Origin: Escherichia coli
GTDB lineage: Bacteria > Pseudomonadota > Gammaproteobacteria > Enterobacterales > Enterobacteriaceae
DNA length: 64,000 nucleotides
Assembly: GCF_036507355.1 (NCBI RefSeq)
Contig: NZ_AP027877.1
Reading direction: 5' to 3' (one strand)
Part shown: positions 4,262-4,706 of the stretch, piece after piece
Layout: each line of letters starts with the position of its first letter
Position numbering within the stretch: position 1 is the first letter of the stretch
Notes under the pieces: generated by a model
The model's database searches: none
What the model was told of the DNA's origin: nothing
The model's input: only the letters and a program-made list of their open reading frames with translations
Translations under genes and position numbers: made by a program

Positions 4262-4499
4262 AGTCGCTGCCATTTATTCAGATAAAGAGTGCGTGGATGG
4301 TAGCAGAATTTCGCTTTGCTTACCGCCTGTTGTTAAGTGATTTGATCGATGGTTGTTAATGATGTCAACGATGGCGCAAAAAATGCCCGCTTTTGGTGCG
4401 AGCTGCGTCAGAATGGCGCAGTAATTTCCAGTAAATTTCGTCAATGATCACAATTCCAGAATTATATTTTACTTCTGCATAACATTGCGTTTTTTATTC

Positions 4500-4560
4500 T
4501 TTTTATTCACCCACATCGCAAACGTATTCACTTAATATGCACTTTAAATGCATATGGTTT
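4500..4560 (+). promoter_or_regulatory. Candidate ArgR (ARG box)-like AT-rich palindromic sites upstream of astC
   Basis: Sequences such as gtattcacttaatatgcac and tttaaatgcatatgg contain TGAAT/ATTCA-like half sites; ast operon is known to be ArgR-activated. Confidence 0.35.
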
Positions 4561-4618
4561 GGTTATAACTCCTTGATTTCCAGTTAGCCTCCGCGGTTTA
4601 TGCACTTTTATCACTGGC

Positions 4619-4634
4619 TGGCACGAACCCTGCA
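4619..4634 (+). promoter_or_regulatory. Sigma-54 (-24/-12) promoter for astCADBE
   Basis: TGGCACgaacccTGCA with GG and GC spaced 10 nt apart, about 75 bp upstream of the astC ATG. Confidence 0.7.
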
Positions 4635-4706
4635 ATCTACATTTACAGCGCAAACATTACTTATTATTAACATATAAATAACGAATTATTTACTGTAGAG
4701 GTCGCT

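Follow-up and report, generated by a model that had tools for sequence, protein, structure and literature searches.

The genes xthA and astC are arranged divergently around a 445-bp spacer (positions 4262 to 4706) in the window, by which we mean the whole 64,000-nucleotide stretch of Escherichia coli DNA that was analyzed; the spacer has the same length in K-12 MG1655. A 561-bp query around the feature matched 5,424 of 5,426 complete E. coli genomes, in each case between xthA and astC. Compared with K-12 MG1655, the spacer carries four substitutions (4315, 4401, 4534, and 4595) and no indels, and because the differences are so few, experiments carried out in K-12 can be transferred to the window base for base; the K-12 coordinate is 1836689 minus the window position. 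All four substitutions spare the conserved consensus bases: 4401 falls between the two NtrC-type sites, and 4534, where A replaces T, occupies the central W of ARG box I.

The first-pass annotation of the region, made from the letters alone, had set its left edge at 4274, on the assumption that xthA starts at an upstream in-frame ATG at 4273, as the longest ORF would have it. The start lies at 4261, and the edge was thus misplaced by 12 nt. The codon at 4273 reads ATG in E. coli but is usually GTG in the other genera, it is not accompanied by a Shine-Dalgarno sequence, and the pattern of substitutions is not codon-like. The features of the region are listed in Table 1.

Table 1. Genes and sequence elements of the xthA-astC region, in window coordinates; promoter-relative positions are counted from the predicted sigma-54 start
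Feature	Position	Strand	Details
xthA (exodeoxyribonuclease III) CDS	3455..4261	-	Start ATG 4261-4259, MKFVSF N terminus, K-12 annotation
Candidate xthA promoter, extended -10	4297..4305	-	TGCTACCAT (TG-C-TACCAT, C at -13, sigma-S-like)
NtrC-type enhancer site 1 (predicted)	4384..4400		TGCCCGCTTTTGGTGCG; center about -253
NtrC-type enhancer site 2 (predicted)	4404..4420		TGCGTCAGAATGGCGCA; center about -233; 20 bp center to center from site 1
CRP-like site (candidate)	4434..4455		AATTTCGTCAATGATCACAATT; center 4444.5, about -200
Upstream ARG-box-like element	4456..4473		CCAGAATTATATTTTACT; 5.2 bits
Upstream ARG-box-like element	4474..4491		TCTGCATAACATTGCGTT; 6.6 bits; at least 6 bits in 45/71 species
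ARG box I	4526..4543		ATTCACTTAATATGCACT; 12.45 bits; center about -110
ARG box II (putative)	4547..4564		AATGCATATGGTTTGGTT; 3 bp after box I; only inner half conserved
IHF-consensus core (candidate)	4566..4578	-	AATCAAGGAGTTA, consensus WATCAANNNNTTR; center about -73, between ArgR zone and sigma-54 promoter
Conserved promoter-proximal block	4597..4608	+	TTTATGCACTTT; about -48 to -37
Sigma-54 (-24/-12) promoter astCp2 of astCADBE	4618..4634	+	17-mer CTGGCACGAACCCTGCA; GG 4620-4621, GC 4632-4633
Sigma-S-type -10, C-TACATT (putative)	4637..4643	+	Overlaps downstream edge of sigma-54 promoter; predicted start about 4649-4651
astC 5' leader	4645..4706	+	62 nt, AT-rich; Shine-Dalgarno GAGG 4698-4701
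astC (succinylornithine transaminase) CDS, first gene of astCADBE	4707..5927	+	ATG at 4707; astA from 5924

Conservation was assessed from a scan of one genome per species, which yielded 80 AstC loci, 70 of them with a divergent xthA upstream and a spacer of 390 to 456 bp (mostly 431 to 448 bp). These 70 spacers were aligned with the window to give 71 sequences from Enterobacteriaceae species in more than 15 genera, with a mean identity to the window of 0.68 across the spacer. The poorly conserved stretches are 4313 to 4372 (mean identity 0.45) and 4500 to 4525 (0.50). The spacings between elements are fixed to within 1 bp across the species compared: NtrC site 2 lies 41 bp from GATCACA in 71 of 71 species, GATCACA lies 173 to 174 bp from TGGCAC in 69 of 71, and ATTCACT lies 93 bp from TGGCAC in 60 of 66. 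Such near-frozen spacing over more than 15 genera shows a tight constraint on looping geometry.

Bare counts of motif matches in the 64 kb are at the level expected by chance: 2 matches against 2.47 expected for the sigma-54 consensus (at most one mismatch), 12 against 9.3 for the ARG-box consensus (at most three mismatches), 29 against 31 for NtrC, and 223 against 224 for CRP. The reality of the individual sites is therefore argued from their position, their phylogenetic conservation, and published binding.

The sigma-54 promoter that the first-pass annotation had proposed, TGGCAC-N5-CTGCA, is present as TGGCACGAACCCTGCA on the plus strand at exactly the positions given, 4619 to 4634, and is documented by published binding data. 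The GG and GC doublets are exactly 10 bp apart and invariant in all 71 species, and there is a single mismatch to TGGCAC-N5-TTGCA (T to C before GC). The pattern TGGCA[CT]-N6-TGCA is kept in every one of the 71 species while positions 4628 to 4630 vary freely, giving a core identity of 0.92. The predicted start, 19 nt past the motif center at 4626, is A4645, 62 nt before the astC ATG. Bonocora et al. (2015) described a ChIP-seq peak of sigma-54, OS17, upstream of astC, with a 17-mer motif identical to window positions 4618 to 4634, a predicted start (19 bp past the motif center) 62 bp from astC, and the EcoCyc flag "C," for experimentally confirmed (PMC4591121). In Salmonella LT2, ChIP-chip showed sigma-54 on the orthologous site, TGGCACGAATGCTGCAAT, and the same study lists the operon as NtrC dependent (PMC3844500). 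Genomic SELEX (gSELEX) with RpoN holoenzyme also recovers the astC/xthA spacer, and astC is named among the few experimentally confirmed RpoN promoters (Shimada et al. 2021; PMC8743547). The supplementary table of that gSELEX study gives another 18-mer, ATGGCGCAGTAATTTCCT (4413 to 4430), as the RpoN motif of the spacer (PMC8743547); this 18-mer corresponds to the right half of NtrC site 2, and the motif finder seems to have mis-assigned it.

Immediately downstream, the 14 bases that follow the sigma-54 core (4635 to 4648) have a mean identity of 0.96, and the CTACATT within them is found in 69 of 71 species. It has the features of a sigma-S -10 element, namely, a C at -13, a CTAYRCT-like sequence, and a weak or absent -35. 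Two promoters, one for sigma-54 and one for sigma-S, are reported for the ast operon (PMC4014581), and we infer from the sequence that CTACATT at 4637 to 4643 is the sigma-S promoter of astC.

Farther upstream, each of the two predicted NtrC sites has three mismatches to the consensus TGCACC-N5-GGTGCA (TGCACCAnnnTGGTGCA), as quoted by Shimada et al. (PMC8743547). Among the 71 species, variation falls on the inner bases and spares the TGC...GC of the half sites, and GC-N11-GC of site 2 is kept in all of them. A further TGGCGCA half site lies at 4372 to 4378, and a 42-bp direct repeat, ATGGCGCA, is found in the area of site 2. To place intervals published in older K-12 coordinates, we used an offset between genome versions that we take to be +1976; it reproduces the sigma-54 motif center, and the same holds for nac and its own sigma-54 motif center. 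Brown et al. (2014) reported an NtrC ChIP-seq peak at astCADBE, cited as direct binding (PMC4066584), and NtrC gSELEX recovers the astC/xthA spacer at 70% intensity (PMC8743547). The ChIP-seq interval, 1830021 to 1830101 (PMC4066584), converts to 4612 to 4692, which is the promoter and not the sites at -233 and -253; this may reflect the way the peak was reported or cross-linking through the loop. The nitrogen control that was foreseen in the first-pass annotation is upheld; what is added to that annotation is an NtrC enhancer, a sigma-S promoter overlapping the sigma-54 one, and elements that resemble CRP and IHF sites.

CRP has been named as a regulator of the ast operon (PMC3590144). The candidate site contains TTCGT-N6-TCACA at 4437 to 4452, in which the right half, TCACA, is perfect and all three mismatches fall in the left half; taken alone, the match is not above chance. 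Among the 71 species, AAATTTCG and GATCACAA are nearly invariant and the six bases between them vary, with a block identity of 0.83.

To search for ARG boxes, we used a symmetric 18-bp position weight matrix derived from 20 boxes in 10 K-12 arg-regulon operators (argF, argI, argECBH, carAB P2, argR, argG, argD, argA, artJ, and artP), none of them from astC. With this matrix the classical operators are found again, and its consensus is ATTGAATAATTATTCAAT. Box I, an 18-bp imperfect palindrome of the form wnTGAATwwwwATTCAnw, has the third-best ARG score in the 64 kb, with about 0.014 such matches expected per 445 bp, and position 4526 scores at least 6 bits in 68 of 71 species (median, 11.9 bits). 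The outer half of box II has a mean identity of 0.55. An alternative register, offset by 11 bp, is found at 4515 and 4536, the former scoring at least 6 bits in 49 of 71 species, and the main ArgR zone spans 4515 to 4564. The upstream pair of ARG-box-like elements contains a conserved half site, TG(A/C)ATAA, at 4476 to 4482. Of the earlier placement of ArgR sites at about 4500 to 4560, the downstream half, with the best box and a palindrome, is retained, and the poorly conserved 4500 to 4525 is not. A tandem TTTTTATTC at 4491 to 4508 is neither palindromic nor conserved.

The palindrome is part of an AT-rich inverted repeat, ATATGCACTT/AAATGCATAT, at 4535 to 4544 and 4546 to 4555. Read against the predicted boxes, ATATGCA-N7-TGCATAT (4535 to 4555) is composed of the inner halves of the adjacent boxes I (ATGCA) and II (TGCAT) and is not one ARG box. 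At each of the two conserved left halves, some species have TGCAT and others TGAAT, a variation that the matrix tolerates. The half site of box I is repeated exactly by TATGCACTTT at 4599 to 4608, 63 bp (3 x 21) downstream, and the invariant promoter-proximal TTTATGCAyTTT might conceivably be an ArgR half site. Secondary accounts in the literature describe ArgR as an accessory, non-essential activator of the ast sigma-54 operon that binds between the enhancer and the promoter, and they describe astCp as a weak sigma-54 promoter.

On the minus strand, xthA has a candidate extended -10 promoter within a block (4295 to 4306; GGATGGTAGCAG) whose mean identity is 0.975 among the 71 species. ATGGTAGCA or a near variant of it is found in 69 of 71 species at a fixed distance of 33 to 35 bp from the start codon of xthA. 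Transcription is predicted to begin near 4290, which leaves a leader of about 29 nt, and the position of a -35 is occupied by CGGTAA (4325 to 4320), which is not recognizable as such an element. The sigma-S dependence of xthA was reportedly described by Sak et al. in 1989; a literature search on the xthA promoter returned nothing, and its assignment to TGCTACCAT is a prediction from the conserved sequence.

Other searches of the spacer gave little. Its small ORFs encode only 20 to 56 amino acids and none has supporting evidence, no Rfam family reaches threshold, and a scan of 4150 to 4800 for sigma-70 promoters and terminators found no sigma-70 consensus promoter in the spacer. A match to the mgtC leader on the minus strand (4376 to 4487) scored 23.3 bits against a gathering score of 48 (E = 0.055) and was taken as chance; terminator-like hairpins at 4218 to 4234 and at 4403 to 4385, the latter inside NtrC site 1, are likewise at chance level. 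On RNA folding, the astC and xthA leaders are no more stable than shuffled sequences (z = +0.82 for astC and about +0.8 for xthA). The astC leader contains TTAACAT (4667 to 4673), which is invariant across the aligned species.

We considered whether the sigma-54 motif could be bound but transcriptionally idle, with astC expressed essentially from a sigma-S or sigma-70 promoter. The motif alone is not above chance in 64 kb. Most E. coli sigma-54 ChIP-seq sites do appear to be transcriptionally inactive in rich medium (PMC4591121), and the description of astCp as weak points the same way. However, astC belongs to the few promoters flagged as experimentally confirmed in EcoCyc/RegulonDB (PMC4591121, PMC8743547), the ast operon is placed in the NtrC regulon by both expression and binding (PMC4066584, PMC3844500), and none of the 71 species departs from the -24/-12 elements or from the enhancer geometry. 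This makes an idle site exceedingly improbable. Induction of an astC-lacZ fusion under nitrogen limitation is, moreover, said to be reported in the literature as abolished by deletion of rpoN or glnG or by a GG-to-TT change at 4620 to 4621. A similar question arises for the palindrome at 4535 to 4555, which might be bound by another dimeric factor (NtrC at a low-affinity, "governor"-type site, or Nac) or might simply be bendable AT-rich DNA. The spacing of its half sites is wrong for one 18-bp ARG box (scored as such, 4537 to 4554 reaches only 7.7 bits), its TGCAC...TGCA is similar to the half sites of NtrC, the interval from NtrC ChIP-seq is nearer the promoter than the -233 and -253 sites are, and TATGCACTTT recurs next to the promoter. 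Against this, the arms lie exactly where one would expect the inner halves of two ARG boxes separated by the canonical 3-bp gap; they are 15 bp apart, compared with 17 bp for an NtrC site; the score and conservation of box I are those given above; genuine ARG boxes also vary between TGCAT and TGAAT; and the secondary literature puts ArgR between the enhancer and the promoter. We regard a factor other than ArgR as quite improbable here and treat the palindrome as part of the ArgR operator.

The candidate IHF core raises a closer question. There are 5 exact matches to the IHF consensus in the 64 kb against 3.2 expected, or about 0.02 expected in 445 bp, and the one in the spacer has no other exact match for about 11 kb to its left or right. 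It is present in 67 of 71 species, with TAAC and TTGAT(T/A) conserved and the N4 between them variable (16 distinct variants at the three bases tallied); the block identity is 0.80, and its distance to TGGCAC is 53 bp in 65 of the 67. At sigma-54 promoters IHF usually sits near -73. The accessible literature makes no mention of an IHF site in the ast control region. The same TAAC-N4-TTGAT(T/A) could instead supply the -35 (TTGATT/TTGATA) of a further sigma-70 or sigma-S promoter, or it could be a Nac-type site, given that GTA-N9-TAT is found in many species. TTGATA matches TTGACA at five of six positions, and a conserved block, TTTATGCA, lies 17 to 20 bp downstream; in addition, Lu and Abdelal are said to have spoken of two putative ast promoters, and EcoCyc presumably lists more than two, which we counted in favor of an extra promoter at 4566 to 4578. 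On the other hand, there is no acceptable -10 at 16 to 18 bp from TTGATT (4573 to 4578), as GTTTAT and TTTATG lack A2 and/or T6, and the promoter scan gave no plus-strand match in the spacer. A -35 would leave the TAAC conserved 4 bp upstream of TTGAT without a role, whereas in an IHF core it is the TTR part, and WATCAANNNNTTR agrees exactly with which columns are conserved and which vary; a Nac site (ATA-N9-TAT) is a misfit in that E. coli has TTT, not TAT. An additional promoter or a Nac site is thus unlikely in our view. That the core is a functional, previously undescribed IHF site is itself a tentative proposal from the sequence, possible but short of probable, and it would be a modest refinement of a known system rather than a new one.

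Position, conservation, and published binding data together support what the first-pass annotation had claimed in general terms, a complex xthA/astC control region with nitrogen and arginine control of the AST pathway. We conclude with high confidence that this is the E. coli control region from which xthA and astCADBE diverge, an already characterized promoter of composite, enhancer-dependent type; the only detail that is possibly new is the conserved IHF-like core. The control region was reportedly studied by Kiupakis and Reitzer in 2002 in E. coli K-12 and by Lu and Abdelal in 1999 in Salmonella typhimurium. Compared with the astCp2/astCADBE region of K-12, the window has the same locus, an identical sigma-54 17-mer, and the same regulators (NtrC, ArgR, RpoS, and CRP), with no substantive difference.

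At promoters of this class, enhancer-bound phosphorylated NtrC reaches sigma-54 RNA polymerase by DNA looping and drives open complex formation with ATP. For astC, identity with K-12 and published binding indicate that sigma-54 RNA polymerase would be held as a closed complex on CTGGCACGAACCCTGCA (4618 to 4634). Under nitrogen limitation, phosphorylated NtrC would oligomerize on the enhancer sites (4384 to 4400 and 4404 to 4420), contact the closed complex by looping out about 210 bp, and open the promoter by ATP hydrolysis, with transcription starting near 4645. ArgR with arginine, on the ARG boxes that fill the loop (4456 to 4564, about -190 to -82), would serve as an accessory, non-essential architectural activator ("superinduction") that boosts an otherwise weak promoter, a role that is in part documented and in part our proposal. 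The IHF core at -73, going by its conservation, may add a fixed bend. If it does, a fixed bend by IHF and a wrap by ArgR that depends on arginine would together shape the 210-bp loop from the NtrC enhancer to astCp2, and ArgR would have a promoter-proximal anchor in the repeated half site TATGCAyTTT at -46. Conservation likewise suggests that the sigma-S -10 would give stationary-phase and carbon-starvation expression from a start about 5 nt past the sigma-54 start, with the CRP-like site at about -200, and that xthA would be read leftward from TGCTACCAT, from about 29 nt before its ATG. The exact limits of the ArgR, NtrC, and CRP footprints and the start sites in this model are predicted, from our own placement of the elements together with secondary citations.

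Among sigma-54 promoters whose enhancer-promoter loop is tuned by another regulator, here ArgR, the ast region, which also has a sigma-S promoter overlapping it, serves as a standard example, and it carries little weight as a discovery. Its analysis here shows that a real sigma-54 promoter can be recognized from raw sequence, and it provides a conservation-backed map of the elements at base resolution in window coordinates; to the published model it adds the conserved IHF-like core, which can be tested cheaply. Like ast, glnHp2 and glnAp2 combine a -24/-12 promoter with tandem upstream NtrC sites, and glnHp2-type promoters also share with it a site for an architectural protein between enhancer and promoter. 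The ast enhancer, at -233 and -253, is unusually far away in comparison with that of glnAp2, which lies at -108 and -140. A role for IHF at ast is suggested by a conserved consensus core, unlike the IHF site in the glnHp2 loop, and the ast loop is filled with ARG boxes, unlike those of glnHp2 and glnAp2, so arginine availability would modulate looping. The ast ARG boxes are of the same 18-bp type as those of the classical arg-regulon operators, and box I is followed after the same 3-bp gap by the putative box II, but they lie far upstream (-82 to -190), where ArgR activates, whereas the classical operators overlap the promoter and ArgR represses. The ast region also has only one strong box: its best canonical pair (4526 and 4547) scores 9.2 bits and ranks seventh in the window, compared with 26 to 40 bits for the classical repressor operators used to train the matrix.

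Besides the sigma-54 promoter of astC at 4618-4634, the xthA–astC spacer has two sigma-54-like pseudo-motifs, both within the NtrC enhancer, and the Enterobacter version of the first of these, TGGTGCAATATTTGCA, has a single mismatch to the sigma-54 consensus. The RpoN motif assigned to the spacer by gSELEX (Table S2 of Shimada et al. 2021, PMC8743547) is the second, at 4413-4430; sigma-54 ChIP-seq instead indicates 4618-4634 (PMC4591121). Elsewhere in the window, TGGCACATGACTTCCA is probably not a promoter, as its -12 element has no GC.

For astCADBE, the NtrC ChIP-seq interval published by Brown et al. 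(2014, PMC4066584) maps to 4612-4692, on the sigma-54 promoter and leader and ∼230 bp away from the sites that fit the NtrC consensus. For nac, the peak given in that table is displaced toward the gene in a similar way. Two short invariant blocks are also found near astC, and the one adjoining the promoter repeats TATGCACTTT of ARG box I, 63 bp apart.

Features in and beyond the xthA–astC spacer
Feature	Position	Strand or orientation	Remark
Segment before xthA ATG, putative conserved leader	4262-4273	minus	
Sigma-54-like pseudo-motif, TGGCGC-N5-ATGCC	4371-4387		within NtrC enhancer
Sigma-54-like pseudo-motif, TGGCGC-N5-TTTCC	4413-4430		within NtrC enhancer
TTTATGCAyTTT, short invariant block	4597-4608		directly upstream of sigma-54 promoter
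TTAACAT, short invariant block	4667-4673		astC 5' leader
TGGCACATGACTTCCA	17508-17523	minus	sole other match to sigma-54 consensus in window with at most 1 mismatch
IS1, complete, 768 bp	15632-16399 and 61066-61833	both same orientation	

At the opposite end of the spacer, GGCAGCGACT, the block of 10 nt that precedes the xthA ATG, hardly varies across 71 species. An alternative start codon in the same frame, ATG in E. coli and GTG in most other genera, is located 4 codons 5' of this ATG. A longer XthA protein initiated there was considered and rejected, since the upstream start has no Shine-Dalgarno sequence and substitutions ahead of the xthA ATG are not codon-like; for the same reasons, we read the block as a conserved leader.

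Divergent pairing of xthA and astC is common in Enterobacteriaceae, but not universal, the exceptions being a minority. The two genes are much farther apart at the AstC loci L050 and L070 (897 and 1891 bp), and xthA was not found within 2.5 kb upstream of astC at L044, L047, L060, L063, L066, L071, L074, and L078, although at L044 and L047 the upstream DNA covered is itself shorter than 2.5 kb.

The two IS1 copies, 45,434 bp apart, are 98.7 to 98.8% identical to K-12 IS1C, and agreement between the two sites continues past the left IS1 end for ∼32 bp and past the right end for ∼11 bp. The enclosed ∼44.7 kb (16400-61065) could be composite-transposon-like or recombination-prone. Within this interval, G+C falls to 0.42 to 0.43 at 20001-22000 and 28001-32000, compared with ∼0.50 elsewhere; these AT-rich stretches, which may be horizontally acquired DNA, also contain the top-scoring spurious ARG-like pairs.
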